Shown here one piece after another: positions 10,813-51,603 of a stretch of DNA of 64,000 nucleotides (its first letter is position 1; every line of letters begins with the position of its first letter). A program made the position numbers and the translations under genes. The stretch spans positions 15,826 to 79,825 of the forward strand of contig JAGOUD010000001.1 of NCBI GenBank assembly GCA_018061465.1, in the 5' to 3' direction. The DNA comes from Burkholderiales bacterium (GTDB lineage: Bacteria > Pseudomonadota > Gammaproteobacteria > Burkholderiales > UBA11063). The notes under the pieces are model-generated. The model searched no databases, was not told the DNA's origin, and saw only the letters and a list, made by a program, of their open reading frames with translations.

Positions 10813-11004
10813 ATGAAAGTATTCAAATGGGAAAACCAAAAGGTACGATTCAGAAAAATAAGTTTGACCAAGATGTTTCTTAGAATCAAAGAATTGCTTG
10901 CTCTGGGTTTATCTGTAAGGAAAATAGCTAATTACTTAGGTTATAGTAATCGTATGGGGCTTAGTAACTATATTAATAAATGTAATATAAGGGAATCTAA
11001 ATGA
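10813..11004 (+). pseudogene. C-terminal remnant of a serine resolvase/invertase (frameshifted, catalytic domain absent)
   Basis: One frame gives MGKPKGTIQKNKFDQDV (10827-10877), the next gives LRIKELLALGLSVRKIANYLGY; joined this is the typical resolvase GKPKG..KFD..IKELL..G.S.RKIA HTH tail. Confidence 0.6.
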
Positions 11005-11642
11005 AAAAAGTTTTTTGGGATAATCCATACCAAACAACTCTAACCACTAAAGTTATCTCAGTTATTAATAATATTATTTTGTTAGAAGAAACCATTGCAT
11101 TTTCATTTTCAGGTGGTCAGGAAAGCGGTAGTGGAACTATTAATGGTTTCAAAATATTAGATTCAAAAATTGAAAATAAACTTATTTACTATACCATAGA
11201 TAGAAATCATAATTTAAACCCTAGTGATACAGTAATTATGAATATAGACTGGGAACGTAGATACAAATTGATGCGACTCCATTTTGCAGCAGAACTAATT
11301 CTTGAATTGGTAACCAAAAAGTTGCAAATTGAAAAAATTGGAGCACACATTGCCGCAGATAAGGCCAGGATTGATTTTATTTACGATAAAAATATTTCTA
11401 TAGTGTTTGCTGAAATATTAGCAGAATATAATGAAATTATTGCCAGGGATGCAGTTATTAAAACAGGATTTACTGATATTGATGCTCAAAGGAGATATTG
11501 GGAAATCGATGGTTTATCCAAAGTAGCATGTGGTGGCACACATGTTAGGTCTACTGCGGAGGTAGGATATATTACACTTAAGCGAGTAAACGTTGGTAAA
11601 TCAAAAGAGCGAATTGAGTTGCGTTTAATGAGTAACAATTAA
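11001..11642 (+). CDS. alaX: AlaX-family trans-editing aminoacyl-tRNA deacylase
   Basis: MKKVFWDNPY, TIAFSFSGGQES, MRLHFAAEL (HxxxE variant of the zinc motif), ACGGTHV. Confidence 0.85.
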   Translation: MKKVFWDNPYQTTLTTKVISVINNIILLEETIAFSFSGGQESGSGTINGFKILDSKIENKLIYYTIDRNHNLNPSDTVIMNIDWERRYKLMRLHFAAELILELVTKKLQIEKIGAHIAADKARIDFIYDKNISIVFAEILAEYNEIIARDAVIKTGFTDIDAQRRYWEIDGLSKVACGGTHVRSTAEVGYITLKRVNVGKSKERIELRLMSNN

Positions 11643-12635: not shown

Positions 12636-14261
12636 CTACAATATATGCCAACTACCACTTTTAGTTGATCCAATTCTCTTTAACTTCCCAGCTTCTTTTA
12701 ACAAAGCGATATTTTTTTCAACTGCCCTAATAGTAATGCCTAGTTCGGTAGCAATTAGTTTAGCTGTAATCCTAGGGTTATTTTTCATTAATTCTAAAAT
12801 TTGTACCGAACTTTGTACCGAACTTTGTACCGAACTTTGTACCGAACTTTGTACCGAACCCTCCTCCAATATGCTTTCTGTACTATGTACCTTACTTGAA
12901 ATATATGCGCTTAAACTACCTACGCTGGGAAACCTAGATATATCGGAAGTATTAACAAAGCTAAACTGAGATTGTAATTGAACTGCTAACTTTTCTATTG
13001 ATACTCCACTGCCTCCTAATTTCAAAAATTGGCTTTCTTTATTAATCTTATCTATCGGCACACTTAACACTTCAGAGTATTTTTTAATCACATATTGCTC
13101 CACTTTTGGTAATATTGCTCGATAGAAATATAATCTAAACATGCCATTTTCTGAGGTAAATTGTGGAAGCGGATGATTATAGTGAAGCAGCTCTTCTGTT
13201 ATTCGATTAGTGCCGCTCCCCCATTTTTCAATTAAACCAGCATAAAAGAATGCTTGAGCTATAATCTTATTTCGTGGTACAGAATTGTGTGAAACAAATA
13301 GCATTTCTGTAGTTAATCCAATTGGTAACCCACCATCATTCCAAAATTCTAATCTATCATCATATAATCTAACCTGGCTATGCGCTAATCCTTTATAATC
13401 TCTGTGACAAAGCAGATTTACTACAGCTTCACGTATTGCATCTAATGGATATTCCCATATAACATCCCGCTGTGGTTTACCTGTAATAACAAACTCCGTT
13501 TGTAATCGTTCTCTAAACCATCCAATAGTACCATCTAATTGTTCTAAAAGCGTTCCGTGTATCTCTCTATCATCTACAATCAATGTAGGTGTACGAAATC
13601 TCCCAAGTTTTAGGTATGCAGAACCAAAATATTTCTCCGGATTATTGCCAAATAATAATAAACTCGCTCTTGTAGGTTTATACTCAATAATTAAATTAAT
13701 TTTTTGCAAAAAATCTAAATCAGAAACATTTTTAGGGATAGGGTGCCTACCTGTATTCTTTACCATATTAACAAATTCACTAATTTTATTTGTGTTCAAA
13801 TCATTTAAAGTCGAAGTTAACTCAATACATGAATCCCAGCTGAACCCATTACTTAAACTCAACCGGTGCATAATTTCATCATTACTCATCCGCTGGTTAG
13901 TTTTGCCAACACGCCTGAAATACCTGCCCCTAAAATTAACCAGGCTCAATGTTACTGGCTCAACAATTATAACCACAACTGATGTATGTTTATATTGCAT
14001 TGGTAAAATTGATATTTGAGGGCGAGGGTCAGTTGTATTTTTTATCTTTTCTGATATATCTTCAACCGTTTTCTTCCCTAAGTCGATCCCCACACATTTA
14101 CCTTGGTCATTAAATCCCAAGAGAACTACTCCCCCATTGGTATTTGCAAATGCTACAATAGTTTCCGCAGCTTCATCGTTAAAAGATGACTTAAATTCTA
14201 TTTTTTCTAACTCACCTAAGCTTAGTAATTTATCAATATCTACTGATGTAACTAGTTCCAT
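12636..14261 (-). CDS. AlbA_2 (Schlafen-like) + HATPase_c_4 (RecG C-terminal-like) + HTH protein with an inserted acyl-carrier-like domain
   Basis: GELEKIEFKSSF...ETIVAFANTNGGVVLLG (AlbA_2); YPLDAIREAVVNLLCHRDY, RNKIIAQAF...IEKWGSG (HATPase_c_4); C-terminal HTH ITAKLIATELG...GSTKSGSW. Confidence 0.85.
   Translation of the reverse strand: MELVTSVDIDKLLSLGELEKIEFKSSFNDEAAETIVAFANTNGGVVLLGFNDQGKCVGIDLGKKTVEDISEKIKNTTDPRPQISILPMQYKHTSVVVIIVEPVTLSLVNFRGRYFRRVGKTNQRMSNDEIMHRLSLSNGFSWDSCIELTSTLNDLNTNKISEFVNMVKNTGRHPIPKNVSDLDFLQKINLIIEYKPTRASLLLFGNNPEKYFGSAYLKLGRFRTPTLIVDDREIHGTLLEQLDGTIGWFRERLQTEFVITGKPQRDVIWEYPLDAIREAVVNLLCHRDYKGLAHSQVRLYDDRLEFWNDGGLPIGLTTEMLFVSHNSVPRNKIIAQAFFYAGLIEKWGSGTNRITEELLHYNHPLPQFTSENGMFRLYFYRAILPKVEQYVIKKYSEVLSVPIDKINKESQFLKLGGSGVSIEKLAVQLQSQFSFVNTSDISRFPSVGSLSAYISSKVHSTESILEEGSVQSSVQSSVQSSVQSSVQILELMKNNPRITAKLIATELGITIRAVEKNIALLKEAGKLKRIGSTKSGSWHIL
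12800..12859. repeat. 12-bp tandem repeat (TTTGTACCGAAC x5) encoding an SVQS linker
   Basis: Five consecutive units read directly; translates on the minus strand as SVQSSVQSSVQSSVQSSVQ. Confidence 0.95.
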
Positions 14262-14905: not shown

Positions 14906-15661
14906 TTATTCAGCTCCTAGAAATTCTTCAACAAAATTAATATAATCAATTTGAGCATTTGCGTTTGGCTGGGATTTAAGAATATCTTCTTTATTTGCTT
15001 GCGCTTCACGAATACTTACGCTTTCCCGAATTCTAGTTTTATATACTTTTGAATTTAGCTGTTTAGCTGATTCATCAATCGTATCGCTGAAATCTTGAGC
15101 TAACCTTGTTCTCTGTTTATGTTTTGTTAATAAAATTCCATCAATTTTTAGTTTAGGGTTGCAATGCTTAATAACCAGATTAACAGTATTAATTAACTGA
15201 CCTAGACCTTGAGTACTTAACATATCTGCTTCCATAGGAATCAGTATTTTATCGGACGCAGTAAATGCATTAACCGTCAAAATCCCTAACGCTGGTGGAG
15301 TGTCTATTAAAATATAATCATATTTTTCTTTTATTTCAGAAATGGCAGACTTTAATAATGATTCTCTACCTGTTTGACTAAACTCTAAATCTGCTGCTGC
15401 TAAAAATAAAGTAGCTGGAATTATGTTAATATTTAAACACGTTTTTTGTATGGCATTATTAACATTTTCTTTGCCCTTAAGTACATCGTAAATAGATAAT
15501 TCACCTAATTTAGCTCCGCTTACCAAAGATAAACTATATTGAGGATCTAAGTCAATTAGAAGAACTTTAAAGCCCTTTTGCATTAAACCAGAAGCCATTG
15601 CTTGAGTAGTGGTAGTTTTACCTATGCCACCCTTTTGATTGCTAATAGAAATTATCTGCAC
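14906..15661 (-). CDS. parA: ParA/Soj-family partition ATPase (type Ib, no N-terminal HTH)
   Basis: Deviant Walker A NQKGGIGKTTT, VLLIDLDPQ, YDYILIDTPPALG, IRESVSIREAQ; GTG start. Confidence 0.95.
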   Translation of the reverse strand: MQIISISNQKGGIGKTTTTQAMASGLMQKGFKVLLIDLDPQYSLSLVSGAKLGELSIYDVLKGKENVNNAIQKTCLNINIIPATLFLAAADLEFSQTGRESLLKSAISEIKEKYDYILIDTPPALGILTVNAFTASDKILIPMEADMLSTQGLGQLINTVNLVIKHCNPKLKIDGILLTKHKQRTRLAQDFSDTIDESAKQLNSKVYKTRIRESVSIREAQANKEDILKSQPNANAQIDYINFVEEFLGAE

Positions 15662-34165: not shown

Positions 34166-35236
34166 TTATAATGTTTGTTTTGGCGGGCGATGTCCATAGC
34201 CACCTAATTGTGGAAATAAAAATAAAATTGCAATCCCCATAGTAATTAAGCCTATAGTTCCTGTCATTAAACTTGCCACATGTACTGAAAATAAACGACC
34301 GCACAAAACACAAATTCCACCGCCAACTCCAATAAAAAGTTCTTTAATAAATAAACTGTTCATTTTAACTCCAGCTACATCTAAATAGCTTACAGCGCAT
34401 TCAACCAAAGATAACAGAATGACCCACACGCATAAAATAATGATATTGGTAAATATTGGTAAATAAAGTGCAGTTATTAATAGCATACCAGAACCCATAA
34501 TAGTAAAGGTAATTTTTAATGGCCCATTATTTGTGGCAGACCTAGTAATTAATTGCATAATAGGTAACTGTAAAAATATAATTACTAACCCATTTATGGT
34601 GATTAAAAAACCATACCATGTGGGGAGTATTTTTAATTGAGAAAGTAAGTATTGTGGTAGCAGAGAATATAAACTGTACATTTTAATTCCAATTGAAATA
34701 CCTAAAAATATCCAGCCTAAAATAATCCTTGGGTCTCTTGAAAATTTATTATTCTGGATAGTATGTATACTATGTTTTGTTCTATTAATTGTTAATAGGA
34801 TGATAAATACAAATATAATTATACTAATAAGAAGAAATGCTGTTTGATTTTTTATTGAAAAATATAAAAAGAGTCCAGATAATACTGAGCCTATATTTAC
34901 TGCAATTTTATTGTAGGCAGCTCCTGATGGAGTTTCTGCTGCCTCAAAGCGAATCAAATACCCAGAAATACTAATACCAATACTAATAAAAATTATTGCT
35001 AATAACCTGATATCCGTATTAGAAAAAAATAGTAAGCACAGTCCTATTGTTGCTATAGAAATTGATATACTCAAAGATTGTTTTTTTGCTGTTAGAATAA
35101 GTAATGGAGTTGCAACCATAAAAAATCTACTACCAAATACTAGTAATGTGTTGTCTATTGGTGTTAACCATATGTTTGCTTGAGCAATTAATGTATATAG
35201 GCAAAAGGAAATAAAAAATCTAGTAATGAATATCAT
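34166..35236 (-). CDS. MFS-type transporter (probable exporter, last gene of the biosynthetic operon)
   Basis: About 11-12 hydrophobic helices; AYNKIAVNIGSVLSG and LITINGLVIIFLQLPI MFS patterns. Confidence 0.8.
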   Translation of the reverse strand: MIFITRFFISFCLYTLIAQANIWLTPIDNTLLVFGSRFFMVATPLLILTAKKQSLSISISIATIGLCLLFFSNTDIRLLAIIFISIGISISGYLIRFEAAETPSGAAYNKIAVNIGSVLSGLFLYFSIKNQTAFLLISIIIFVFIILLTINRTKHSIHTIQNNKFSRDPRIILGWIFLGISIGIKMYSLYSLLPQYLLSQLKILPTWYGFLITINGLVIIFLQLPIMQLITRSATNNGPLKITFTIMGSGMLLITALYLPIFTNIIILCVWVILLSLVECAVSYLDVAGVKMNSLFIKELFIGVGGGICVLCGRLFSVHVASLMTGTIGLITMGIAILFLFPQLGGYGHRPPKQTL

Positions 35237-35259
35237 AAGTATATCTTTTCATAGGAATT

Positions 35260-36408
35260 TTAATTATAATTAATAACATTAGTTTGTTCAGATATTTTGA
35301 CTCCAAATATTTGCATATATTCAAATAGAACTTTGATATTATCTTGAGTAAAAAGATGTTCTGGATAAATAATACCGTGTAACATATGATTATTTTTTAA
35401 TAAAAGAAATAATATGGGTAAGCAGGTAGCTAATGCCATAGAGTTAATACATGGCGTCAGATCAAAAAATTTAATTTTTAATTTTATATTTATCTTATCT
35501 CTATCTTTTAATCCCGTTAATTCAAAGTTAAGAATTGTAATACTTTTTTCATATGCCGGCTTGAAGGTGAATGATTCATATGAAAGTGATTCAAGCAATT
35601 TTTTTGCTGAATAGTTTTTATCTATATTAAGGGGTAATTCATCTAGCATTCCTGCTTTTTGTAATAGATTGACAATATTTGCATAACCAGACCAGCGTAT
35701 TGTACGTTGGTCTACATTAACATTACTTTTTATTAATTTTGGGTTAGTGCTAAGTCTTATTTGCATTCCATCGTGCCAAGTTTCAACTATACCAATGTCG
35801 GGTTCTTCATGTACTTTAATTTCAGAGAATCTGGGGACTGTTATTAATTTACCATTACGTATACAAAAACAACTTTTTTGAGCAAATGGAAGATAAGAGC
35901 TGCCAAATAACCTTTTATAGCCTAAAAGATTATTTGGTTTTGGCAATACTAACCCGCCGCACTCTATATTTAAGGTATGTACCGAATCAACTTTATTCAA
36001 TAAATAATAACTTAATATCTCTGTTAATCCGGGTTCTAAACCATATGCAAATATAAATTCTATTTGATTATCTGCAATAATTTTAGTTAAATCTTCAAGG
36101 TCATCATTGTTTGGTCTACAAATGCTGATGAAAGTTTTACAATTTTCTATATTGTTATCTTGTAGACAAATACATTTAACAATATTTTTAGTAGCTTCCC
36201 ATGATGCACAACAAATTACAGTATTGTTAAATGTGAGGGAACTATAGTTATTATTATATACTATTTCAACATTTGAAAAATAGGATAATTCACTTAAATT
36301 AGCAATGTTTATATCAAATACCCTAATTTGTGTATTTGATAAGTAAGTAGCTATTAACCTAACTAGAGCACAACCAATAGAACCACAACCAATAATATCA
36401 ATATTCAT
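35260..36408 (-). CDS. Saccharopine/lysine dehydrogenase-like NAD-dependent oxidoreductase (ForL/PyrL-like)
   Basis: Rossmann IIGCGSIG; YGLEPGLTE, IECGGL..PKP, IRNGKLITVPRFSE, RTIRWSGY. Confidence 0.8.
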   Translation of the reverse strand: MNIDIIGCGSIGCALVRLIATYLSNTQIRVFDINIANLSELSYFSNVEIVYNNNYSSLTFNNTVICCASWEATKNIVKCICLQDNNIENCKTFISICRPNNDDLEDLTKIIADNQIEFIFAYGLEPGLTEILSYYLLNKVDSVHTLNIECGGLVLPKPNNLLGYKRLFGSSYLPFAQKSCFCIRNGKLITVPRFSEIKVHEEPDIGIVETWHDGMQIRLSTNPKLIKSNVNVDQRTIRWSGYANIVNLLQKAGMLDELPLNIDKNYSAKKLLESLSYESFTFKPAYEKSITILNFELTGLKDRDKINIKLKIKFFDLTPCINSMALATCLPILFLLLKNNHMLHGIIYPEHLFTQDNIKVLFEYMQIFGVKISEQTNVINYN

Positions 36409-36466
36409 AGTAAAGTAATCTTTTAACCTAGAAAATCACTAAATATACTAACTGCTTTTTCTAGAT

Positions 36467-37702
36467 TTAATTAAAAACAGGTGTTAATGTTTGAGATATC
36501 CATTCTAAATGTTTAATAAGCTGATCATGGGAGGGCGCTGTGCTAATTACTCCAAGTAATCTTTGTTTCCTAAAATCTTTCGGGGGTAATTCAATATGAG
36601 TGCCTATTGGAGTTTCTGTAATTACATGTGAAACCCATGGATGATTGAGAATGTTGTCCATATTATTATATCCCTTTAATAACCCTTCTTGATTAGCAAG
36701 TATAAAAACTTCGCCAGCAACTTTATTAGGTGTTAGGACTGGGTCTGGTTCTTGACCAAGAGTGATTTTTATTAGATTTTTATAAAGGTTATATCCTGTT
36801 GCGAGCGGTACTAAATGAGAATTAATATGACAACCTCCTGGACGGGCAGCAATTTCTATCAAAGAAAATTCTTGTTTTTTATATTTTCCTTCTAAATGAA
36901 AAGAAGTATTATTTAATCCTAACGCTAAAATATATGCAGTAGTTTTTTCTTCGATCATATTTTTTGTTTCTGTATCTAAATTTGCTGGGAAAATATGACA
37001 AGTTTCTAGTTTAAACGGATGTGAGGTAACTTTATGGGTGATTCCAATAATAGTAACTTTATGATCATATACAAGCCCCTCAACACTTACTTCTTGTCCC
37101 TCAATATACTTCTCAATTACAAATGTTAATTGCTTTTGAGAGATAGTTGGGTCATAAATAGGGTTTGCAATTGAAGCTCGACTTTTATAATAAGTTTCTA
37201 AATCTTTTTCATCATTAATCATATAAATTCCAGTACTACCAGAAGTGTTAATTGGTTTTATAATTACCGGTAATCCAAATTCTTGTATAAATGAATCAAT
37301 ATCTGTATCCTTTTGAATAATTCTAGTTGGTAATTTATCAATATGAAATGTACGCTTCCTTAATTCATCCTTGTTTCGAACAAATTTAATGGATTCAATG
37401 GGTAGTCCTGGTAAATTTAATTTATGTGCTATAATAGCACTAGACTCTACAGCAGTTTCAGTAAAACATACTACACTTGTTATCACTATATCTGATTTTA
37501 TATTATTAATAGTGAGTAGTAGGTCATCTAAATTATTAGTTTTACATAGCATAAATCTATCAACATGTGCAGATAACGTTTCAGGAAGTTGAGTATCTCC
37601 AATTACTAAAACTTTATATCCTAGATAGTGAGTGGCCTCAAAGGTACAAATACTCTCCCTGATTAAACGGCGAAAATTAATAAATAGTATATATTTATCC
37701 AT
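36467..37702 (-). CDS. ATP-grasp amino-acid ligase (ForM-like position)
   Basis: RNKDELR, PVIIKPINTSGSTGI, EKYIEGQEVSVEG, FHLEGK, LIEIAARPGG. Confidence 0.9.
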   Translation of the reverse strand: MDKYILFINFRRLIRESICTFEATHYLGYKVLVIGDTQLPETLSAHVDRFMLCKTNNLDDLLLTINNIKSDIVITSVVCFTETAVESSAIIAHKLNLPGLPIESIKFVRNKDELRKRTFHIDKLPTRIIQKDTDIDSFIQEFGLPVIIKPINTSGSTGIYMINDEKDLETYYKSRASIANPIYDPTISQKQLTFVIEKYIEGQEVSVEGLVYDHKVTIIGITHKVTSHPFKLETCHIFPANLDTETKNMIEEKTTAYILALGLNNTSFHLEGKYKKQEFSLIEIAARPGGCHINSHLVPLATGYNLYKNLIKITLGQEPDPVLTPNKVAGEVFILANQEGLLKGYNNMDNILNHPWVSHVITETPIGTHIELPPKDFRKQRLLGVISTAPSHDQLIKHLEWISQTLTPVFN

Positions 37703-37723
37703 ATTATTATCCTTAAAAAAATA

Positions 37724-38320
37724 TCAAATGATCTTACATGCATTGTAGTTTAGAGAAACTTGGGGTTTCACCCATTCTAACATATTTTTTAATCGTGGTA
37801 TGCTGGTTTGAGAATTATCATTCAGCATACATAAAATTTGCTGTGTGAGATTGGGCATTATTGGCCATAAAGCCACTGCAAGAGCTTTTAGTCCAAGTAG
37901 ACTGATAGATATTGTCGTGCGATCTACATTATAGTTATTAGAGTTTTGTGTTAGCATATCGGAAAACACGTATACTTCTTCTAATAAATAACTATTTAAT
38001 CTTACAATGTTACTTGAGTCAAAATTTTCGATGTTAAATGCATGTGTAGATTTTTCATAAAAGTTTTGGAGCTGCTGGTAAAAACTCTGGTGTTCTTTTT
38101 GCCAAATTCCAGACTCTGGAACTATACCAGAAAAATTTATATCCAAAAAATTTTTAATCCTTTTGAGTATTACCACTAATTTATCATGCCTATTATTTAT
38201 CCATTGATACATTTCTGATAATACGAAATTACGGTTTAAAATGGTGGATTTTTGACTAACCAAATATAATCTTAGCCAGTCTGAATCCAAGGTCTTTATG
38301 ATATCTTTAGCGTAAAGCAC
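37724..38320 (-). CDS. C-terminal part of cupin/MetRS-like hydrazine synthetase (anticodon-binding-like domain)
   Basis: Upstream in the same frame to 38380: FFGNEFYLLDGSKFSTSRRHVLYAKD (KMSKS-equivalent KFSTSR); DWLRLYL; LAVALWPIMPNL. Confidence 0.8.
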   Translation of the reverse strand: MLYAKDIIKTLDSDWLRLYLVSQKSTILNRNFVLSEMYQWINNRHDKLVVILKRIKNFLDINFSGIVPESGIWQKEHQSFYQQLQNFYEKSTHAFNIENFDSSNIVRLNSYLLEEVYVFSDMLTQNSNNYNVDRTTISISLLGLKALAVALWPIMPNLTQQILCMLNDNSQTSIPRLKNMLEWVKPQVSLNYNACKII

Positions 38321-38352
38321 GTGCCTACGGGATGTAGAAAATTTACTTCCAT

Positions 38353-39609
38353 CTAAGAGATAAAATTCATTGCCAAAAAAGCGTTACATTCCACATGCTT
38401 AATATTTGATAATTTCAGCAAAATGGGAAAAATTATGCATCTCAAATAACTGTTATCATAACCAAAAAATAGATTTAACGAAAATTTCGATTTTTTATCA
38501 AATTTGTGCTTTTCTTGTAAATCGTTAAATGCTGTTAAAAACCTAGGTATAAGCTCAACTGCAGAATATATTTTTTGATCTTGAAATCCATTAATATTTA
38601 CCGAGATACCAATATCAGAATATATACTTATAGGAATTTCTGGTAATGGCTTTAATAAGATTCTATTTATAAAATTAGCAGTATTTCCTCTATAACAGCC
38701 TTGCATCAATAAGTGTTGAATAGTATGACGATATTTATCTAGAGGAATAAATAGTCTAGATAGAGGCTTCATTATTGTTGGGTGATTGCACAGTGTACAT
38801 ATGGGGTTAATTAATAAATGATCTGGAATAAACTCAGCACAATTTTCACACTCAGAACTAACTTTATTATTGCAATATGGGCAAACCCCTGTTACATTTG
38901 CCTCAAATACATATCCATGTCCATATTCACAGTATGGAACCATAGTTGTACGTTCTATAAGACAATTTTGTTGATATAAATTAGTTATAAATTGAGCTGC
39001 TGATGTTTTAAAATAATTAGCTTTTGATAAAGTAGTGAATGTGTCATATTCTACTGATAATAAGTCATAGTTTTCTAAAAAATCTTCGGAATATTTAAAT
39101 GCTGTATCCGTATAATTAAGTCCAATAGCTTTGGCAGCGTGAGCAACATGAGTTTGATAACCGATAGTTCCACACAGATGATATGTTTTAGAATTTCCTA
39201 ATGATTTTTGTGCTCGTGCTAATACATCTGCATTCAAAACAGGTCCAGCCAAATGACCTAGGTGCATTTTGCCATTGGGAGTAGTAAAGCTTGGTAATAT
39301 AATGTTTATTGCCAACTTATCAATAGTAAATGATTCTTGTTCAGCATGTATATTATCTTGCCACCATATATTACCAATTTTTAATGGCTCACTTCCAATA
39401 TTTTTGATCATATGTGATTTAAAGGGAGGTAAGTTAACTATATCATATTGTTTAATGGTTTGATCATCTCCATCAGAATACAAGCAGCCTGTACCATGGA
39501 AAACAATTAAAATTTCATGATCTATATGGTTTTGCCATTTTGTAGATTGATTAGGCATTATATTAAAGTGAGATATATTGATTTTATTATAAGTAGTATT
39601 TTTACTCAT
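38353..39609 (-). CDS. N-terminal part of cupin/MetRS-like hydrazine synthetase (N-N bond-forming enzyme)
   Basis: Cupin H28-x3-E32...H66 (QNHIDHE...LPPFKSHMIKN..EPL..IWW) fused to class I aaRS PNGKMHLGHLAGP (HIGH) and CPYC/CENC/CTLC zinc knuckle; stops early at a T6 run. Confidence 0.85.
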   Translation of the reverse strand: MSKNTTYNKINISHFNIMPNQSTKWQNHIDHEILIVFHGTGCLYSDGDDQTIKQYDIVNLPPFKSHMIKNIGSEPLKIGNIWWQDNIHAEQESFTIDKLAINIILPSFTTPNGKMHLGHLAGPVLNADVLARAQKSLGNSKTYHLCGTIGYQTHVAHAAKAIGLNYTDTAFKYSEDFLENYDLLSVEYDTFTTLSKANYFKTSAAQFITNLYQQNCLIERTTMVPYCEYGHGYVFEANVTGVCPYCNNKVSSECENCAEFIPDHLLINPICTLCNHPTIMKPLSRLFIPLDKYRHTIQHLLMQGCYRGNTANFINRILLKPLPEIPISIYSDIGISVNINGFQDQKIYSAVELIPRFLTAFNDLQEKHKFDKKSKFSLNLFFGYDNSYLRCIIFPILLKLSNIKHVECNAFLAMNFIS

Positions 39610-39625
39610 TTACCATCCTGTATTA

Positions 39626-40408
39626 TTATAGTTTGCTGTATCTATCCACATGGCTATTCATTTCATATAAAGATCTGCGATTTTTGGGGTTAGGCTCTGA
39701 TAGCCATATCTGATAATTTTTTTCGAGAAAACGCCATTTTGTATCAATTATCCCATACCAAGCAGTATCTCGATTTTTACCTTTTACGATCATATGCTTA
39801 TAAAATAATCCTTCAAATTCAAAACCTAAACGTATGGCAGCTTTCTTAGATTCCAAATTATTGTTATTGCAGCGCCACACAATTTTACGAAAATCTAATT
39901 GATTAATACAATATGTTATTAATAGGTAAACAGCCTCAGTATTTGCTTCAGATTTTTGATATTTAATAGGATAGGTTACACTAGCTATTTCTATGTTGCC
40001 CATTTCAGGTTTACATTCTGAAAGGCATACAATACCGATAGGTGCATTAGTTTTCCTATCTTTGACACAAAATACTAATTTGTCTTTTGTATTGATGTAT
40101 TTCTGATAATGTACTTGCATTGATTCAATATTTTCAAATGGTCCGTATGGTAAATATTCCCAAACTTTTTCTAATTCCAATGAACCATGTGTTAATTGAT
40201 ACAGTGGGGCAATATCAGACATTTTTAGTTTGTCAAGGATAATATAATTGCCCCTAAGTAACTGGTAAGTTGGTGCTCTGGCTGGTTGTATTTCTAAAGT
40301 TACTACAGGATCATTACTTGTTTTTGCCTCATGATACTTCAGATTATTGTGTTGGGAAAAAACTTTGTTAAAAGTGCTTATCATAATATCTTCTATAAAA
40401 CTTTTCAT
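39626..40408 (-). CDS. GNAT N-acetyltransferase (RimJ/RimL/YdaF-like), in the biosynthetic operon
   Basis: WEYLPYGPF, GNIEIASV, EANTEAVYLL, FRKIVWRCNNNNLESKKAAIRLGFEFEGLF, GKNRDTAWYGII. Confidence 0.9.
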   Translation of the reverse strand: MKSFIEDIMISTFNKVFSQHNNLKYHEAKTSNDPVVTLEIQPARAPTYQLLRGNYIILDKLKMSDIAPLYQLTHGSLELEKVWEYLPYGPFENIESMQVHYQKYINTKDKLVFCVKDRKTNAPIGIVCLSECKPEMGNIEIASVTYPIKYQKSEANTEAVYLLITYCINQLDFRKIVWRCNNNNLESKKAAIRLGFEFEGLFYKHMIVKGKNRDTAWYGIIDTKWRFLEKNYQIWLSEPNPKNRRSLYEMNSHVDRYSKL

Positions 40409-40989
40409 ATTACATAAAAGAAAACAACATATCCTGTTTTATTGCATAACTAGCTGCAGTATCAAAGACCAACACCACAATTTCATAAAACTTCTCTAAA
40501 CTAACATTTATTATTCTCGTCATAATTTTAAGCCCCTTTTAAATATATTTAGCTGTTTATACCTATATTTTTTAATTGAAATAGGTTTGTGCTTGTCATT
40601 AGAGCTGCATACAATATAACATATAATCAAACTCAATGCCACCCAATGAATGCAAATTTGTAGCCTATCTAATTTATTGAATTTAGTTTCTTCAAATTTA
40701 AAACATCTGCTTTTCATAGAAAGAAATAATCTTTCACTTTGTCACCTGAGCCGATACAATTTTAAGATAACCTCTAACTCTAAATTATTGCTAGCTACAA
40801 TAACAAATTATTTTTCTTCACTTAAGGTTGCTTCTAATATTAAATAAACACTCCGCAAGCACAGCAGGGTTTAAATCTAATATTAATCGTGGTAAGACGC
40901 GAAGAATTAACCTAATATTGGATTAAAGTTACTTTTTATTTTTACTAATCTATAAGCTAGATAATTGGTACCCTATTAGAATGAAAATC

Positions 40990-42285
40990 CTAAGAAACAT
41001 AATTATTATTAAACATCAGATTATCTAAATCTACATTGTATATATTTTTTTTAAGTATACTATTAATGATTACAGCATTTCTCCAAGCAGCTAAACTTAA
41101 ATTAGGATCAGAAATTCCAAATTGATGTTTAAGTCCATTCTGGATAAATATTTTGTTTTTAGAATTATTCCAATTAATAGAATAGTCTGGATTAATTTCT
41201 AAATCTTCTATGCTGGTAATACCAGGGAATAAATTATTCATAAAATAAGGAACTTCATACTTATATCCTGTCGCTAGTATAGTTATATCAAAATGTTTTG
41301 TTAGTACCTTTTGGTTATCTAGATTAGTTATATGTAAACAATGTGGATCATTTTGGGTTATAGCGGTTACTAAGTGGTGTGGTAATAAAGAAAAAATTAT
41401 AGGCATTTTCTTAACATGCCGTAATTCATATATCTTATTATATAATGAGTCAGATAAATCTTCAGAAATTCCATCACTACATAATATCAAATCGTTAAGC
41501 TTTTTTAGCCTAGCATCATACGGTAGTTTATAAAAATATTTTATATGCCAAGGACTATATAATTCATTGCTAAAACAACTATTTTCTAATGGCTGAAAAT
41601 TAGGTCTGTCAGAAATCCATACAATTTCTGCTGGTAATTCCGAAGAAGATATTATATCATCTATAACTTCAGCCCCACTTTGCCCACCGCCTATAATTGC
41701 AATTTTTTTTTCAGAAAAGTTTAGCTTAGCCTTAGCTGTTTTATATGTTGAATTATGAAATATCGAGTTACATATAGACTTTTTAAAGTTATTGGGAATA
41801 TTTGGTACCAAACCTGTTCCAATAATGATATTATTTGTTGAATAAGTATAAGTTTCAGTTTGTACTATAAATTTTTTATTTTCGAAATGAATTGATTGCA
41901 CACAGCTATTATAGCAAACATTTTTTATTTTACTGGCTGCCCATTGGAAATATTCATTAAATTCAGCTCTAGATACTGTTTGTTGTTTCCTGTGCATAAA
42001 CTGAAAGATCCTTCCAGTTTCCACCAAATATGCTAAAAAAGATAATTTATTAGTTGGATCAACCAGTGTAACTAGATCTTTTAGATAATGTACTTGTAAT
42101 TTAGAGTTATGTAATATCATATCTTCGTGCCATGAGAAAGAGGGTTTTTTATCCACAAATAAACACTTAATTCCTTTTATCTCATTTATTAAGGCAGCTA
42201 ATCCAAGATTAAATGCCCCAAACCCAACACCAAGTAAATTGAAGGGGTTACTGTTTTTTGCTTTATATTCAGTTAATTTAGCCAT
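40990..42285 (-). CDS. Lysine/ornithine N-hydroxylase (IucD/SidA family, FAD/NADPH)
   Basis: GVGFGAFNLGLA, FSWHEDM, LKDLVTLVDPTNKLSFLAYL, SRAEFNEY, IIGGGQSGAEV, ILATGY, PNLSLAAWR. Confidence 0.92.
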   Translation of the reverse strand: MAKLTEYKAKNSNPFNLLGVGFGAFNLGLAALINEIKGIKCLFVDKKPSFSWHEDMILHNSKLQVHYLKDLVTLVDPTNKLSFLAYLVETGRIFQFMHRKQQTVSRAEFNEYFQWAASKIKNVCYNSCVQSIHFENKKFIVQTETYTYSTNNIIIGTGLVPNIPNNFKKSICNSIFHNSTYKTAKAKLNFSEKKIAIIGGGQSGAEVIDDIISSSELPAEIVWISDRPNFQPLENSCFSNELYSPWHIKYFYKLPYDARLKKLNDLILCSDGISEDLSDSLYNKIYELRHVKKMPIIFSLLPHHLVTAITQNDPHCLHITNLDNQKVLTKHFDITILATGYKYEVPYFMNNLFPGITSIEDLEINPDYSINWNNSKNKIFIQNGLKHQFGISDPNLSLAAWRNAVIINSILKKNIYNVDLDNLMFNNNYVS

Positions 42286-42588
42286 AGAAATAAAAATATC
42301 AACTCAAAAAATCATTTATTAATTAACCCACCTTTAATCTCTATCAAATATGGGAGGATTATTCAATAAGCGTATATTACCACAATTTAATTGATTAATG
42401 GCAAAAATTTTTATAAAAATATCATGACCCCGCAGTCAGTATATAATAAAAAAATTCCTATATGCATATATATAATGTACAATCAGTACATCGTTGTCTT
42501 ACCTTCTGTTACAAGTAGTAACGATAATAAGTAGTTATTATTGATGTCGGTGGACTAAATTAACCGATTAGTGTTTTAAAATACTTTC

Positions 42589-43755
42589 TTGAAAATATTT
42601 ACCATTGAAATTAGAAAAATGAAAACTATTTATGAGAATTGTTCTCCGCGTAATAATGGATTAGATTCTTTAAGAGCATTAGCTATAATTACTGTTTTTC
42701 TACATAATTTCTATTATGCTAATCCTAGTCTTAACTTTGGGATAATTACTTCCATCGGATGGGTGGGGGTAGACTTATTTTTTACTCTTAGCGGTTATTT
42801 AATAGGAAACCAACTATTTAAATATCTTCTTATAAAAAAAAGTATTCCTATAGCCATTTTCCTAATAAGGAGGATATTACGCACAGTTCCTAACTACTTA
42901 ATAATTGTTTTAGGATACATATTTTTTACCTCCTTAAGAGATAATCCTACTCTACCGCCTTTATGGCAACTATTAACGTTTACTACTAATTTAAATCTCA
43001 AAAGTGGCACTAGTTTATCATACACTTGGTCTTTATGTGTTGAAGAACAATTCTATTTAAGTTTACCTTTTATAGTTTTAATTTTATTTCGCTTAAAATC
43101 ATCCTTAGCAATGTTAGGTGGTCTACTATGTATAATAGGTGGAGGAATTTATCTTCGTGAGTATTTATGGAACATATATATTGGATATAACTTAGCTTCA
43201 AAAGCTTTAACTTCCCAGCAAATACTAAGTTATAAAACTCATATATATTTTTTTACATTATGCCGTTTAGACGAATTAATAATAGGAGTAATTATAGCTT
43301 TTATTAAAAATTTTCATAACAATATATGGGCAGTTTTAACTAAATATGGGAATTTTATGGCTTATTTAGGTATACTAAGTACAGGTGCTACCTTGTATAT
43401 TATTCTCAACTACCCCTATTTTCTATATACGATCATGTTTGAATATTTATTATTAGGGATAAGTTTTGGATTATTAATAATCTCATGCTTAAGCCCTAAC
43501 TCTATTTTATATAGCATGAAAATACCTTTTGTACATTCTATAGCATTAATTTCATATGCAATATATTTAATTGAAAAGCCCTGCAATAAAATTATCATGG
43601 GATTTATAAGGCAATATGATATAACTACCAATAATTGGGTATCTTTTATAATCTGTACCTGTAGCTCTTTATTTGTTGCTTACTTACTCTATATGACTAT
43701 TGAAGTAAATTTTTTAAAATTACGCGATAAAAAAATTTTATTCGAAAAACCTTAA
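42589..43755 (+). CDS. Acyltransferase-3 (OafA-like) integral membrane acyltransferase
   Basis: GLDSLRALAI, GWVGVDLFFTLSGYLI, RRILRTVPNY, WSLCVEEQFYL, ISYAIYL; start probably ATG at 42619. Confidence 0.9.
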   Translation: MKIFTIEIRKMKTIYENCSPRNNGLDSLRALAIITVFLHNFYYANPSLNFGIITSIGWVGVDLFFTLSGYLIGNQLFKYLLIKKSIPIAIFLIRRILRTVPNYLIIVLGYIFFTSLRDNPTLPPLWQLLTFTTNLNLKSGTSLSYTWSLCVEEQFYLSLPFIVLILFRLKSSLAMLGGLLCIIGGGIYLREYLWNIYIGYNLASKALTSQQILSYKTHIYFFTLCRLDELIIGVIIAFIKNFHNNIWAVLTKYGNFMAYLGILSTGATLYIILNYPYFLYTIMFEYLLLGISFGLLIISCLSPNSILYSMKIPFVHSIALISYAIYLIEKPCNKIIMGFIRQYDITTNNWVSFIICTCSSLFVAYLLYMTIEVNFLKLRDKKILFEKP

Positions 43756-43776
43756 ATACTATAAAAAGGAGATCAA

Positions 43777-44763
43777 ATGGGATATAATGCATTCACTAAA
43801 CTTGGACATTTACAACTAAATTCACCTATAATAATTGGGGCTAATGATCAACTAATTGATTTTAACAGTTTCGCCCTAATAGCCAAACATAGTAAACAAT
43901 TAGGAGCTTTTGTTACAAAATCCTGTACCTTAAAATCAAGAATAGGTAATCCTGAGCCAATAATTGCTTGTGTAGAAAATAATGTACTGGTATCTTCCGG
44001 GTTAAGAAATCCGGGAATAAACAAGATGCTTCCCGAAATCATCCAATATCAAGCTAAATATCCTTCATCTTTATTTCCACACTTAATTGTAAGCATTGCA
44101 TCAGATCCAGATAATCATTCTCTAACGCCTATGGATGAATACACTCAATTAGCTTGCCAATTATATGAAAATGGTATTACTAGTATCGAATTAAATCTAT
44201 CCTGTCCTAACTTAAATAAACATGAAATAATTGCCAATAACTCACAGAGTGTCTATGAGATTATTCATAGTATTAAACAGGCTTTTGCACGTAAAGGTTA
44301 TAATTTATATACTTTAATTGCCAAACTTGCTGGAAGTGAAGAAACTATATCCCAATCAGCACTAGCTGCAGTAGAAGCTGGAATTGATGCAATAACTATT
44401 TTGCCCCTCCTTCGAGCTACTGCTTTTTATACAGGGTTAACCTCCACTAATATAAATCATAAGAAAATAGGGACCCCATTATTAGGTAATATACATGGAA
44501 CTACTTACGGCAGCGGGCTGGGTCCCATTACTCGGCAATTAACCGTTAATTTAAGCAAGATCATTAAGGTACCTATTATTGCCTCAGGTGGTTGCTTATG
44601 CGGTATGAATAATACTATTATAGAAAAAACTGATGGTTTGATTCAAACTTTGCTAAGTGGAGCACAGTTTACTGCTGCAGTTAGCGCCTTTTTTCCCTTT
44701 ACTCCAGATAAATTGGAGGAAATCGACCTAATTATAGATAATTACCGCAAATTTACTTCGTAA
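43777..44763 (+). CDS. Dihydroorotate-dehydrogenase-like FMN oxidoreductase with divergent substrate site
   Basis: VTKSCT, GLRNPG, IELNLSCPN (class 1 catalytic Cys), AKL, IIASGG. Confidence 0.8.
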   Translation: MGYNAFTKLGHLQLNSPIIIGANDQLIDFNSFALIAKHSKQLGAFVTKSCTLKSRIGNPEPIIACVENNVLVSSGLRNPGINKMLPEIIQYQAKYPSSLFPHLIVSIASDPDNHSLTPMDEYTQLACQLYENGITSIELNLSCPNLNKHEIIANNSQSVYEIIHSIKQAFARKGYNLYTLIAKLAGSEETISQSALAAVEAGIDAITILPLLRATAFYTGLTSTNINHKKIGTPLLGNIHGTTYGSGLGPITRQLTVNLSKIIKVPIIASGGCLCGMNNTIIEKTDGLIQTLLSGAQFTAAVSAFFPFTPDKLEEIDLIIDNYRKFTS

Positions 44764-44852
44764 TTTTATAGCGATACTAACTTGTAAAGTTTATGTGATA
44801 GAGCAGCACCTACAAAAATATGCCGCTTTGGTATTCTAAACTAACTATTTTT

Positions 44853-45650
44853 TTACTGAAAACTATATGTTTCTTTAATTATAATATTGGCAAGCTCTTG
44901 TGGTTGCTCTAGTTGTACCATGTGCCCTGCATTACTAATACAATTAAAAGTAGAATTTATTATAGCAGAATGTAAGTATGTTGAGTGCCGTGGATTGACT
45001 AGTACATCATCATCTCCGGTAATAATTGAGGTATAACATTTTATTCTTACAAGTTCATTTTTTGCATCATGCTTCAAACAAGCATTTAACTGCCCAAACA
45101 TTCCTGCTAATGTTTGCGGGTTATTAATCATCCGTTGCATAGCAAGTTTTTGATTATCTTCTTGGCAAAGGAATCTATTGCTGAAAATAGTTGGGATTGT
45201 TGATAATGCTACAGCATGCTTATCTGCTCCAGATTTTAGTAATTCATATCTCCCAATTAAAAATAATCTGGCTACCGCATCAAGCTCTGCAAAAGAGGAA
45301 ATTAAAAATAAATGTTGTACTAAATCAGGGTGAGTAAGTACAATTTGTTGGGCAATAGCTCCACCCATAGAATGCCCAAGTAACCAAATCTTATTTATAT
45401 TTAATTTATTAATAATATGCATAACATGGGCGGCCATTTCTTCTGTAGTGTATGTCCCTATGGGCTGTAAACTTTTCCCTGCACCCAGATTATCTATTAA
45501 TAAGATTGAATAATCTTCCTGTGTTAATAAAGCTGAGCATAAGCTATTCCAGGTTTCACAACTGCCTGTATATCCTGCCAAAAAAACCAACCATGGTTGG
45601 TTATGGTTTTTAGAGGTATTATAAATTGTATAATACAAGTTATCGTTCAT
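44853..45650 (-). CDS. Alpha/beta hydrolase
   Basis: DNLGAGKS, nucleophile GHSMGG, ITGDDDVLV, AGHMVQLEQP; 4-bp overlap with upstream ORF. Confidence 0.92.
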   Translation of the reverse strand: MNDNLYYTIYNTSKNHNQPWLVFLAGYTGSCETWNSLCSALLTQEDYSILLIDNLGAGKSLQPIGTYTTEEMAAHVMHIINKLNINKIWLLGHSMGGAIAQQIVLTHPDLVQHLFLISSFAELDAVARLFLIGRYELLKSGADKHAVALSTIPTIFSNRFLCQEDNQKLAMQRMINNPQTLAGMFGQLNACLKHDAKNELVRIKCYTSIITGDDDVLVNPRHSTYLHSAIINSTFNCISNAGHMVQLEQPQELANIIIKETYSFQ

Positions 45651-49533: not shown

Positions 49534-51603
49534 ATGAATGATTTAAGTAAATATGATCCGAATAAGTACTTGCCAGTAACTTCTGAATACCAAAAGCATT
49601 TACCAGTAGATAATCGCGTAATTGATTTGCCGTTATTTATGGTATCAGGTGATTCTTTGCAGCAACGTAAGTATGTAATAGATGAATCTACGCATAAGGT
49701 TGTTGAGGTAAGTAATCCGCGTGGAGTAATACCTAGAAATTTTGATCAAAAAGTTTATTTTGCTTTAGTTCAAGTTTCAATTGATTTTAAAAATAAAATT
49801 TATAACACTCTTTTTAAAAAAATTCATGAATTAATGTTTAATAAGGTGGGCGATTATTTAAAATATTTTAACGAAGCTGAAAATATTGCATTAGTTCATA
49901 AACGTGGAGGTGTTAAAACTTTATTTGAAAAAATAGAGTTCATTAAGTTTACCCTTGAAAATTTGGATAATAATATTACTATAGCGTATCATTTATCCAA
50001 TTATAACTTAGATGTATTAAGACAATTTTCATTGTTGAAGGAAAATGTGGAATATGTGGAAATAATAAATAAGATCATTTCCAATAAATTAATTAAAGGA
50101 GATCTTGAGGCATTAACAAAATTGTTTAATTGCTCAAGTTTTGTTATAGTTGCTAAAGTTAATAGAATAGGTGAGCTAGTAAATCAGTTAATCAGTGGAA
50201 AAATTGAAAAACGTGAAATAAATGAACTACTAAATGATTATGACTTTTTACACTCAGCTGAAATTATCCCTACTGAGATTTATTTTACATATTATGAAAT
50301 TACTAAATATTTGGGGCAGCGAGGATCTGCTCATTTGAATAATTTAATTTATGAATCATTGTTAAGAATGCGTGACACCAAATATCTTTTATGGAATTGT
50401 GCATATAACGCTACACAAGGCAAGTTAGTAGATATGTTAGATTGTTCCTTTATAAATTCTATTGAAGTTACCCAAAAAGAAAATTTAGAAGAATTCAAAA
50501 AATATATGGAGTTTACAGGGTTAACTAAATCCAATGCAATTGTAAAAGTTAGATTAGAACCTTTTTTTATTAACAATTTAGTTGAGCAGAAAGGTCATAT
50601 ATTATTTCAGCTAAATACATTAATGCGTATAGATAATCCCACAGCTAGGAAGTTATATATGTACGCAGATAAAAATCGATGGTGGATGGGTAATAGAGAT
50701 TTTAAAACTGATAAGAAAATTAGGTTAAAGTTAGAAGAATTGGCAGCTAGAGGGATTGTTAATATAAATAATAATTCTGCAATTCCAACTACAATTAAAG
50801 TCATATTACGGGCTTTAGATTACTTAAAAGACAATAATTTAATTTTGGAATACGAATTTTTTAAAGAAAAACCTCAAATTCGTAGCTATTTTGATATAGT
50901 TTTTGCAGAGAGCCGAGATATTAATCCAATAAATTATCAAGATAACTTTGGCTCTCCTATAATAAAACAAAAAACTTTCAAAAAAACTAGTCCACTTAAA
51001 AACCTTCCAGATTTATTTAATGATGATTCAGTGAAATTAAAAGAAGAATTAAAAATAATACTGCAAGATTTTGATATTACTTTAACTTCAGATACTATTA
51101 AATTATTAAATGAGACATTTGAAAATAAAGGTATAGATTATATAAAATATGCCAGCGAATATACTAAAAATATGAAACCAGAAGATAATGTAGGATATTT
51201 TATAGCCACATTAAAGAAAAATCATCATGAAAAATTTATGTTTAAATCACAGCAGAAAAACAAAATTATTGAAAAAGAAAATAGAAAAAAGGAAGAAGAA
51301 AAATTCAAAAAAAAATTATTAGAACAACAAGAAACCGCTAAACGTAGCTACATAGAAAGTGAATATTATAAATTGAGAGACTCAGAGAAAAACAAATATT
51401 TAGAGTATTCACAACTAATTATAAAAAAATATTCTTCTAAACTGTTAAATATGAGTGGACAGCCGGATATTAAAAACCTTGAAGAACAGCTTCTTTTAAG
51501 TATATATGCTAAATCAACTGGAGCTTCATATAACTATGCATTGGAAATTTATATTGAAAAATCTTTGGGTATTAAGTTGAACATATACCATTCCAGCAAA
51601 TAA
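49534..51603 (+). CDS. Plasmid replication initiator protein
   Basis: VIDLPLFMV...GVIPRNFDQKVYFAL, IYFTYYEITKYLG, IDNPTARKLYMYAD patterns of winged-helix Rep initiators; directly downstream of iterons. Confidence 0.75.
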   Translation: MNDLSKYDPNKYLPVTSEYQKHLPVDNRVIDLPLFMVSGDSLQQRKYVIDESTHKVVEVSNPRGVIPRNFDQKVYFALVQVSIDFKNKIYNTLFKKIHELMFNKVGDYLKYFNEAENIALVHKRGGVKTLFEKIEFIKFTLENLDNNITIAYHLSNYNLDVLRQFSLLKENVEYVEIINKIISNKLIKGDLEALTKLFNCSSFVIVAKVNRIGELVNQLISGKIEKREINELLNDYDFLHSAEIIPTEIYFTYYEITKYLGQRGSAHLNNLIYESLLRMRDTKYLLWNCAYNATQGKLVDMLDCSFINSIEVTQKENLEEFKKYMEFTGLTKSNAIVKVRLEPFFINNLVEQKGHILFQLNTLMRIDNPTARKLYMYADKNRWWMGNRDFKTDKKIRLKLEELAARGIVNINNNSAIPTTIKVILRALDYLKDNNLILEYEFFKEKPQIRSYFDIVFAESRDINPINYQDNFGSPIIKQKTFKKTSPLKNLPDLFNDDSVKLKEELKIILQDFDITLTSDTIKLLNETFENKGIDYIKYASEYTKNMKPEDNVGYFIATLKKNHHEKFMFKSQQKNKIIEKENRKKEEEKFKKKLLEQQETAKRSYIESEYYKLRDSEKNKYLEYSQLIIKKYSSKLLNMSGQPDIKNLEEQLLLSIYAKSTGASYNYALEIYIEKSLGIKLNIYHSSK

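Follow-up and report, generated by a model that had tools for sequence, protein, structure and literature searches.

A predicted carrier-protein-free hydrazine gene cluster with a frameshifted synthetase on a conjugative element

What does a bacterium make with a cupin joined to a methionyl-tRNA synthetase (MetRS)-like enzyme, surrounded by a flavin N-hydroxylase, an acetyltransferase, a ligase and a dehydrogenase, and can it still make it? The question is raised by a 64,000-nucleotide window (the whole stretch of DNA analysed here, from a Burkholderiales bacterium, assembly GCA_018061465.1, contig JAGOUD010000001.1), where open reading frame (ORF) listing and Pfam scans delimit a hydrazine cluster proper at positions 34166-42285 of the minus strand. 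Natural products with N-N bonds are rare and pharmacologically useful. An initial annotation, made from the letters of the window, had taken the locus for a plasmid-borne cluster of this kind with an unfamiliar gene set, and had thought of a small N-N heterocycle among the products. We find that the locus belongs to a family of small, carrier-protein-free hydrazine clusters, as yet uncharacterised, that recurs in Gram-negatives. As a whole, our account of such a cluster on a conjugative element, with the pathway proposed below and a copy that is most likely inactivated, seems to us fairly probable.

The hydrazine synthetase, its substrate and its broken frame

Pfam scans place the named genes where the initial annotation had them. 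Among these the hydrazine synthetase is central. Its 5' ORF holds the cupin domain, the MetRS-like Rossmann core and a zinc knuckle and ends prematurely after a frameshift; read through the break, the protein has 628 residues. The motifs described earlier are there as well: HLGH, KFSTSR and the cupin signature H28-x3-E32...H66 with its 38-residue histidine spacing. In an alignment of 17 sequences H28, E32 and H66 are invariant, and HLGH and the four cysteines of the Cys4 zinc knuckle are conserved.

Could this be a housekeeping MetRS? Its best match in the PDB, PyrN-C (E 1.4e-83), lies far ahead of the best true MetRS (E 1.5e-36); PyrN-C is the portion of the pyrazofurin hydrazine synthetase that serves as aminoacyl-hydroxylamine synthetase. 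The NCBIfam MetRS models score at most 132 bits against cut-offs of 336-633, and the match of the cupin domain is RHS1, a cupin that forms N-N bonds (PDB 5UQP, E 4e-5). In a tree of 101 synthetases the enzyme does not group with housekeeping MetRS either. It is sister to the enzyme of locus L006, which belongs to a Burkholderiales metagenome-assembled genome (MAG04) of the same genus, followed by metagenomic L002 and by proteins from Bradyrhizobium, Bacteroidota and other metagenome-assembled genomes (MAGs). The actinomycete PyrN/ForJ enzymes form a clade apart from this one, and the glycine-type enzymes lie at a great distance. On these grounds we reject the housekeeping reading and, with the initial annotation, assign the protein to the family of cupin/MetRS-like hydrazine synthetases. 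The family is small: a scan of 1.84 billion representative proteins returned 130 relatives at E <=1e-30, about a dozen of them above 250 bits.

Which amino acid would such an enzyme use? The binding pocket of PyrN is lined by S138, F139, P140, T141, V179, Q182, A384, L387, R390, N421 and R425 (Supplementary Table 5 of 10.1101/2025.08.22.671884), and the code that our alignment extracts for PyrN, SFPTVQALRNR, equals the published one. The enzyme of the window reads SFTTIQALRNR, with P changed to T and V to I. Because nine of the eleven residues are retained, including both arginines that bind the γ-carboxylate of glutamate in PyrN crystal structures, glutamate is its predicted substrate. The same pocket code is found in all members of its clade, and glycine-type synthetases read TPPTDQWMGNH in the same alignment. 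Whether the Bradyrhizobium proteins, the closest homologues with a named source, might correspond to the published aspartate enzyme AspHS was also considered and rejected, since AspHS differs (679 aa, pocket AFPTLMYHRNR; pocket table of 10.1101/2025.08.22.671884) and the Bradyrhizobium relatives carry the glutamate code. The glutamate-using hydrazine synthetases characterised in the literature examined are PyrN, ForJ, FocJ and a Rhodococcus homologue; all are actinomycete, and no member of the Gram-negative clade is among them.

The broken frame and the 628-residue read-through had been recognised by the initial annotation; the lesion, however, lies not at the stop codon but at a run of six T that is one base shorter than in the intact orthologue. 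Upstream of the run, frame 0 reads ...ECNAF. Downstream, the shifted frame continues with FGNEFYLLDGSKFSTSR..., which matches the family consensus, and frame 0 goes on for seven wrong residues before it meets a stop. The KFSTSR loop is encoded but lies in neither called ORF, the 3' one (37724-38320) beginning past it, so that the family's KFST(S/G) loop is not read in one continuous frame here. In the orthologue L006 it is intact and in frame. The lysine of this loop is the ATP-binding residue and has been used as an inactive control for PyrN.

Is the cluster functional all the same? The missing T might be a sequencing or assembly error, it might mark a minority or phase-variable allele, or ribosomes or polymerases might bypass it by slippage, and hydrazine would then still be made. 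The break does sit in a homopolymer, all other genes of the cluster are intact, and the 217 codons beyond it have kept their sequence: they are 40.2% identical to L002 and 34.3% to L003, compared with 38.8% and 35.8% for the intact orthologue, so that conservation to these outgroups is about that of an unbroken gene. This lack of decay implies that the lesion is recent or, less likely, an artefact. Against a working copy, the break recurs in an independent Logan contig (run SRR11088468) that matches at 100% identity across 3601 bp; six bases make a short run for slippage to be frequent or for short reads to err at a homopolymer; and without a change of frame the KFSTSR loop, with the lysine whose loss inactivates PyrN, stands in neither ORF. 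We thus regard a functional cluster in this genome as unlikely. Most likely this copy of the synthetase was recently inactivated, and the cluster is probably inactive here and yields no product. Since the copy is broken, the intact orthologues are the better material for study, and the frameshifted one is valuable mainly as a pointer to them. Such intact clusters lie in Bradyrhizobium zhanjiangense CP022221 (about 1,148,600-1,156,600) and, in MAG04, on contig JAPJMP010000189.

Partner enzymes, relatives and the proposed pathway

The synthetase adjoins the flavin-dependent N-hydroxylase here and in almost all related loci. The hydroxylase carries the FAD motif GVGFGAFN and the NADPH motif GGGQSG, and by analogy with the known pathways its product is predicted to be N6-hydroxylysine. 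Its ranking of PDB matches could be taken to indicate a diamine substrate. We did not accept this ranking as diagnostic, as the ForK-like hydroxylase of a formycin-type cluster ranks identically.

An N-hydroxylase next to an acetyltransferase of the GNAT family recalls another kind of pathway. Hydroxylase and acetyltransferase form the classic hydroxamate pair, as in IucD and IucB of aerobactin. The locus might accordingly make N-acetyl-N-hydroxylysine for a siderophore-type molecule coupled by the ATP-grasp ligase, with the MetRS-like gene as a dead passenger, and the broken synthetase of this genome would suit such a role. Yet the orthologue and all related clusters keep the synthetase whole and in syntenic position, the L006 enzyme being even fused to the GNAT; neither a synthetase of the siderophore type independent of nonribosomal peptide synthetases (NRPS), nor an NRPS, a TonB-dependent receptor or iron-uptake genes lie next to the cluster; and the dehydrogenase would have no part in hydroxamate synthesis. 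A siderophore-type locus is therefore very improbable. The GNAT, which is 72% identical to its L006 homologue and recurs in the related clusters L002, L087 and L090, is instead predicted to acetylate a hydrazine or amine nitrogen of the intermediate or product. In L006 (148-2430) an uninterrupted open frame of 760 aa runs from the C-terminal half of the GNAT into the synthetase; the N-terminal half of this GNAT is missing or disrupted at the contig start.

The dehydrogenase-like protein starts with GxGxxG. Its AlphaFold model (pLDDT 86, pTM 0.87) finds as top Foldseek matches the L-lysine dehydrogenase 3ABI and the glutamate-forming saccharopine dehydrogenases (human AASS and the yeast enzyme), with TM-scores of 0.74-0.81. 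Enzymes of these kinds break or make the C6-N bond of lysine. The adduct expected from N6-hydroxylysine and glutamate, Lys-N-N-Glu, is an aza-analogue of saccharopine, and by analogy the dehydrogenase is predicted to cleave it to 2-hydrazinoglutarate and aminoadipate semialdehyde; for PyrL the literature proposes the same cleavage. The dehydrogenase co-occurs with all synthetases that retain the equivalents of R390, N421 and R425.

The ATP-grasp enzyme is a ligase of the L-amino-acid-ligase type, related in NCBIfam to BacD, DdaF and PylC; its PDB matches are the L-amino-acid ligases BL00235, BacD and RizA, and it shares 79% identity with its L006 counterpart. We predict that it forms an amide or hydrazide bond with the hydrazino acid. 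Literature searches on ForM, PyfJ and PyrK turned up neither the reaction of the ATP-grasp in the pyrazole pathways nor support for the N-acylating role that had been ascribed to ForM and PyfJ. The membrane protein at the end of the row, 65% identical to its positional counterpart in L006, is presumed to be the exporter; most related clusters have an MFS gene.

Between the hydroxylase and the remaining genes lies an AT-rich spacer, which holds no ORF of at least 100 aa and may contain an internal promoter. A promoter scan of the spacer gave nothing better than shuffled sequences and no terminator was found there, a scan of this type being uninformative in AT-rich DNA.

How far does this gene set extend beyond one genome? 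The closest relative, L006, has GNAT, synthetase, ATP-grasp, dehydrogenase and MFS genes in the same order at 62-79% amino acid identity, and its synthetase is intact. Further clusters come from Bradyrhizobium and Bacteroidota, from one Coxiellaceae and one gammaproteobacterial MAG, and from several metagenomes, often beside transposases or integrases. All of the distant ones combine hydroxylase, glutamate-code synthetase and dehydrogenase, and the extras vary: there are usually an MFS gene, often a GNAT, in one case a penicillin-amidase-like gene, and one or two ATP-grasps, except in L010 and L089, the Coxiellaceae-like loci, which have none. The gene set is thus not unique to the window, as its description as unfamiliar might have suggested. 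In actinomycete loci ATP-grasp, dehydrogenase, hydroxylase and synthetase are ordered as in the reported pyrKLMN operon, one of these loci, L013, being formycin-like by its neighbours (aminotransferase, 2-hydroxyacid dehydrogenase, adenylosuccinate synthetase). The homology of dehydrogenase and ATP-grasp to formycin/pyrazofurin-type cassettes, proposed at the outset, is borne out. Because the ATP-grasp tree mirrors the synthetase tree, with the ligase of the window next to those of formycin-type cassettes, and because the set is shared with the actinomycete loci, the cassette of hydroxylase, synthetase, dehydrogenase and ATP-grasp appears from these comparisons to be old and co-inherited.

Does the pathway then go on to a ring, as in formycin? 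On this early cassette a pyrazole, an oxo-pyridazine carboxylate or a similar small N-N heterocycle could be built, with the nearby dihydroorotate dehydrogenase (DHODH)-like flavoenzyme as ring oxidase. The four-gene cassette is indeed common to formycin-type clusters, a cyclised 2-hydrazinoglutarate would resemble dihydroorotate, and the DHODH-like gene is a divergent class-1 paralogue (109 bits against a cut-off of 269). This gene, however, travels with an acyltransferase-3 and an α/β-hydrolase in genomes that have no hydrazine cluster. The trio (42589-45650) is conserved at 51-58% amino acid identity in G022 (locus L092), and the DHODH-like gene and hydrolase in G033 (locus L093), both of the same genus as the host and both without the synthetase. 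Conversely, G013, which carries the hydrazine cluster, has no DHODH-like match, and no other related hydrazine locus examined carries genes of the trio. The trio is for these reasons a separate module. The acyltransferase-3 and DHODH-like genes exist as the initial annotation said, but they do not belong to the cluster, and with them the main hint of a heterocycle is removed. Nor does the cluster have neighbours of the kind seen at the L013 cassette (Rieske, FAD-oxidase, aminotransferase or C-glycoside synthase genes), and among the ORFs checked from 16 to 62 kb no C-glycoside synthase (ForT/PrfE-type) or pyrazole-tailoring Pfam family was found, again as first described. We consider a heterocyclic product improbable.

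Two contig ends of the same assembly (C10:13034-13524 and C132:1-257) carry copies, 96.5-97.3% identical, of parts of the DHODH-like gene (window 43750-44745). They suggest that the region exists in a further, slightly diverged copy, owing either to strain heterogeneity or to a second replicon in the bin.

The pathway that we favour would thus run without ring formation. In a first step, drawn by analogy, the flavin N-hydroxylase would convert lysine to N6-hydroxylysine. In the second, following the two-step mechanism of esterification and rearrangement reported for these synthetases in the literature, the cupin/MetRS-like enzyme would adenylate glutamate (the amino acid predicted from the pocket) and esterify the N-hydroxy group, and its zinc cupin would rearrange the ester to the Lys-N-N-Glu hydrazine. 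The dehydrogenase, judged by its modelled fold and by the reaction proposed for PyrL, would then oxidise the lysine C6-N bond and free 2-hydrazinoglutarate. Finally, the ATP-grasp would attach an amino acid to this hydrazino acid, most likely in a hydrazide bond, the GNAT would acetylate a free nitrogen, and the MFS-like protein would export the molecule. The product is likely to be an acylated or acetylated hydrazide or dipeptide of 2-hydrazinoglutarate, and may act as a Trojan-horse antimetabolite like other products of L-amino-acid ligases. Relatives with two ATP-grasps may make a longer peptide, and the GNAT may cap the molecule here and in L006.

Some points weigh against this account. 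The amine donor could be ornithine or a diamine instead of lysine, the nearest solved hydroxylases being diamine enzymes; the ATP-grasp, being homologous to that of the pyrazole pathways, possibly catalyses a different reaction from hydrazide ligation; the MFS-like protein is weakly assigned, its Pfam score lying below the cut-off; and the frameshift may have arisen in assembly or sequencing of the homopolymer, or be partly bypassed.

Going further, the Gram-negative clade may make a new class of compounds: N-acetylated or aminoacylated hydrazides of 2-hydrazinoglutarate, that is, Trojan-horse glutamate antimetabolites, assembled by an ATP-grasp of the L-amino-acid-ligase type, with the genes passing horizontally on conjugative elements and transposon-flanked islands. 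The GNAT-synthetase fusion of L006 would then point to an acetylation directly coupled to N-N bond formation. We put this forward tentatively, as a proposal whose chances are somewhat below even. What the comparison does bring out is that the four-gene cassette of formycin-type clusters also exists in Gram-negatives, without the nucleoside-building genes, with GNAT, extra ATP-grasp and exporter genes, and often on mobile DNA. The cluster family is a good lead for genome mining and offers a compact target of six to seven genes for a new hydrazide metabolite. Its members also provide a route to the function of the shared ATP-grasp, with a bearing on the middle steps of pyrazole formation.

The conjugative element, its host and its other genes

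The window lies on a contig of 89,975 bp, the longest in an assembly of 241 contigs, 2.1 Mb and 34% GC. In Table 1 and in the text, coordinates are window positions unless prefixed C133, which denotes the whole contig.

Table 1. Coordinates of the hydrazine cluster, its frameshift and other features of the contig.
Feature	Position	Strand	Details
Flavin-dependent N-hydroxylating monooxygenase (Lys/Orn/diamine family)	40990-42285	minus	Pfam Lys_Orn_oxgnase E 6e-96
AT-rich spacer	40409-40989		581 bp, between hydroxylase and GNAT-to-MFS gene row
GNAT N-acetyltransferase (Acetyltransf_3)	39626-40408	minus	Pfam E 6e-13
Hydrazine synthetase, 5' ORF	38353-39609	minus	418 aa; Pfam Cupin_2 and tRNA-synt_1g
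Frameshift site	38375-38380	minus	T6 run, one base fewer than intact orthologue (L006 DNA and frame comparison)
Hydrazine synthetase, 3' part	37724-38377	minus	shifted frame, 217 aa; KFSTSR (KMSKS-like) loop and helical C-terminal domain
ATP-grasp ligase, L-amino-acid-ligase type	36467-37702	minus	Pfam ATP-grasp_4 E 1e-23, and ATPgrasp_N
Saccharopine/lysine-6-dehydrogenase-like NAD(P) oxidoreductase (PyrL-like)	35260-36408	minus	Pfam Sacchrp_dh_C 38.5 bits, above cut-off
Polytopic membrane protein, MFS-like	34166-35236	minus	hydrophobic; Pfam MFS_1 23 bits, below cut-off
Acyltransferase-3 (Acyl_transf_3)	42589-43755	plus	Pfam
DHODH-like flavoenzyme (DHO_dh)	43777-44763	plus	Pfam
α/β-hydrolase, RutD/PcaD-like	44853-45650	minus
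MobP-type relaxase	3698-7585
AlaX-type alanyl-tRNA editing protein	11001-11642	plus	NCBIfam AlaXM E 4.5e-40, below cut-off; Pfam tRNA_SAD
Defence-type gene	12636-14261	minus	Schlafen/AlbA_2, HATPase_c_4 and HTH
ParA partition gene	14906-15661
Type IVb pilus genes	18-25 kb
Large ORFs, 510-689 aa	26132-33603; 49534-51603	plus	no Pfam/NCBIfam match
VirB4/8/9/10/6/11 homologues	52-62 kb
Type I restriction-modification subunits	C133:233-5399		HsdS- and HsdR-like by eye
Hybrid NRPS-PKS	C133:6472-13473	minus	2333 aa
FAD-monooxygenase-like ORF	C133:13483-14724		adjoins NRPS-PKS
Coupling protein	C133:80262-82277		just past window end

Is the element a plasmid, as first supposed? A relaxase, a coupling protein, type IV secretion genes for mating-pair formation and a partition gene are all present on the contig, on either side of the cluster, so the element is conjugative, and it is probably a plasmid. 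The latter status is unproven: the contig is unclosed, its ends showing no overlap, and among the ORFs checked, many of which have no family assignment, there was neither a replication initiator (Rep) nor an integrase or tRNA. A megablast of the cluster against the PLSDB plasmids gave no match, and VirB4 is at best about 35% identical to plasmid proteins of PLSDB, so that no known plasmid family can be named.

The host fits the low-GC Gram-negative that had been expected. Its RpoB is 83% identical to proteins of MAGs labelled 'Burkholderiales bacterium' and just 62-63% to those of cultured Chromobacterium, Eikenella and Methylophilaceae. Because of this distance from cultured relatives, RpoB places the host in an uncultured low-GC betaproteobacterial lineage. 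The synthetase is present in two of the 38 genomes of the host's family, which consists of a single genus, a scarcity that fits horizontal acquisition of the cluster.

Other genes of the contig complete this picture. The absence of an NRPS or carrier protein, stated initially, holds near the cluster but not for the contig: a hybrid of NRPS and polyketide synthase (PKS) lies about 2.3 kb ahead of the window start, its domains ordered by eye as adenylation, carrier, ketosynthase, acyltransferase, ketoreductase, carrier and thioesterase. Together with the hydrazine cluster it brings the biosynthetic loci of the element to at least two. A free-standing protein of the AlaX type is encoded 23 kb from the cluster; according to a recent proposal, free tRNA deacylases mark clusters for non-canonical amino acids (PMC13149037). 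A defence-type gene and restriction-modification subunits were also seen, and several large ORFs without family match sit downstream of the pilus genes and ahead of the VirB genes.

Comparison with known systems

Among the characterised systems, those of pyrazofurin (PyrN, PyrM, PyrL and PyrK) and formycin (ForJ, ForK and ForL) from Streptomyces and Nocardia come closest. They likewise have a didomain cupin/MetRS-like synthetase with a glutamate pocket, beside an N-hydroxylase, a saccharopine-dehydrogenase-like enzyme and a homologous ATP-grasp, at 28-36% amino acid identity to the proteins of formycin-type loci. In contrast to them, the synthetase and ATP-grasp described here fall in separate, mainly Gram-negative clades; C-glycoside synthase, aminotransferase, Rieske/FAD oxidase and purine-like tailoring genes are missing; and a GNAT, an MFS-like exporter, a conjugative element and a frameshifted synthetase are found instead.

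The fuscazine (fuz) cluster of Microbispora fusca is likewise a carrier-protein-free hydrazine peptide cluster, in which an N-hydroxylase and a cupin/MetRS pair make a hydrazino acid that an ATP-grasp acylates to the hydrazide (PMC13149037). The ATP-grasp in question is FuzC, and the logic of an ATP-grasp acting on a hydrazino acid is thereby already published (PMC13149037). The two clusters differ in their parts. In fuz the cupin and the MetRS-like protein are separate, cleavage falls to an FAD oxidoreductase, the substrate is arginine or hydroxyarginine, and two ATP-grasps and a tRNA deacylase are present (PMC13149037). In the cluster described here the synthetase is fused and its pocket is of the glutamate type, the predicted cleavage enzyme is NAD(P)-dependent and resembles saccharopine dehydrogenase, and a GNAT accompanies a single ATP-grasp. 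This cluster shows neither the split synthetase, the FAD oxidoreductase nor the second ATP-grasp of the fuscazine type, and the AlaX-like gene of the element is too distant to count as an adjacent deacylase.

The hydrazinoacetic acid systems (Spb38-40, Tri26-28 and Azs) use the same synthetase family with a partner N-hydroxylase, and N-acetyltransferase genes, AzsS and ThzS, are listed in the azaserine and thrazarine clusters. Their synthetases, however, have a glycine-type pocket and occupy a distant branch of the tree, and their cleavage enzyme is an FAD-dependent one resembling D-amino-acid oxidase.

By sequence, the closest characterised relatives of the ATP-grasp are the L-amino-acid ligases BacD (bacilysin), RizA, DdaF and BL00235, at a low similarity well below the family cut-offs. 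These ligases couple an amino acid to a warhead amino acid; in the cluster described here the nucleophile is probably a hydrazine nitrogen instead. The kinship suggests that the product here may be a dipeptide-like pro-drug that carries 2-hydrazinoglutarate.

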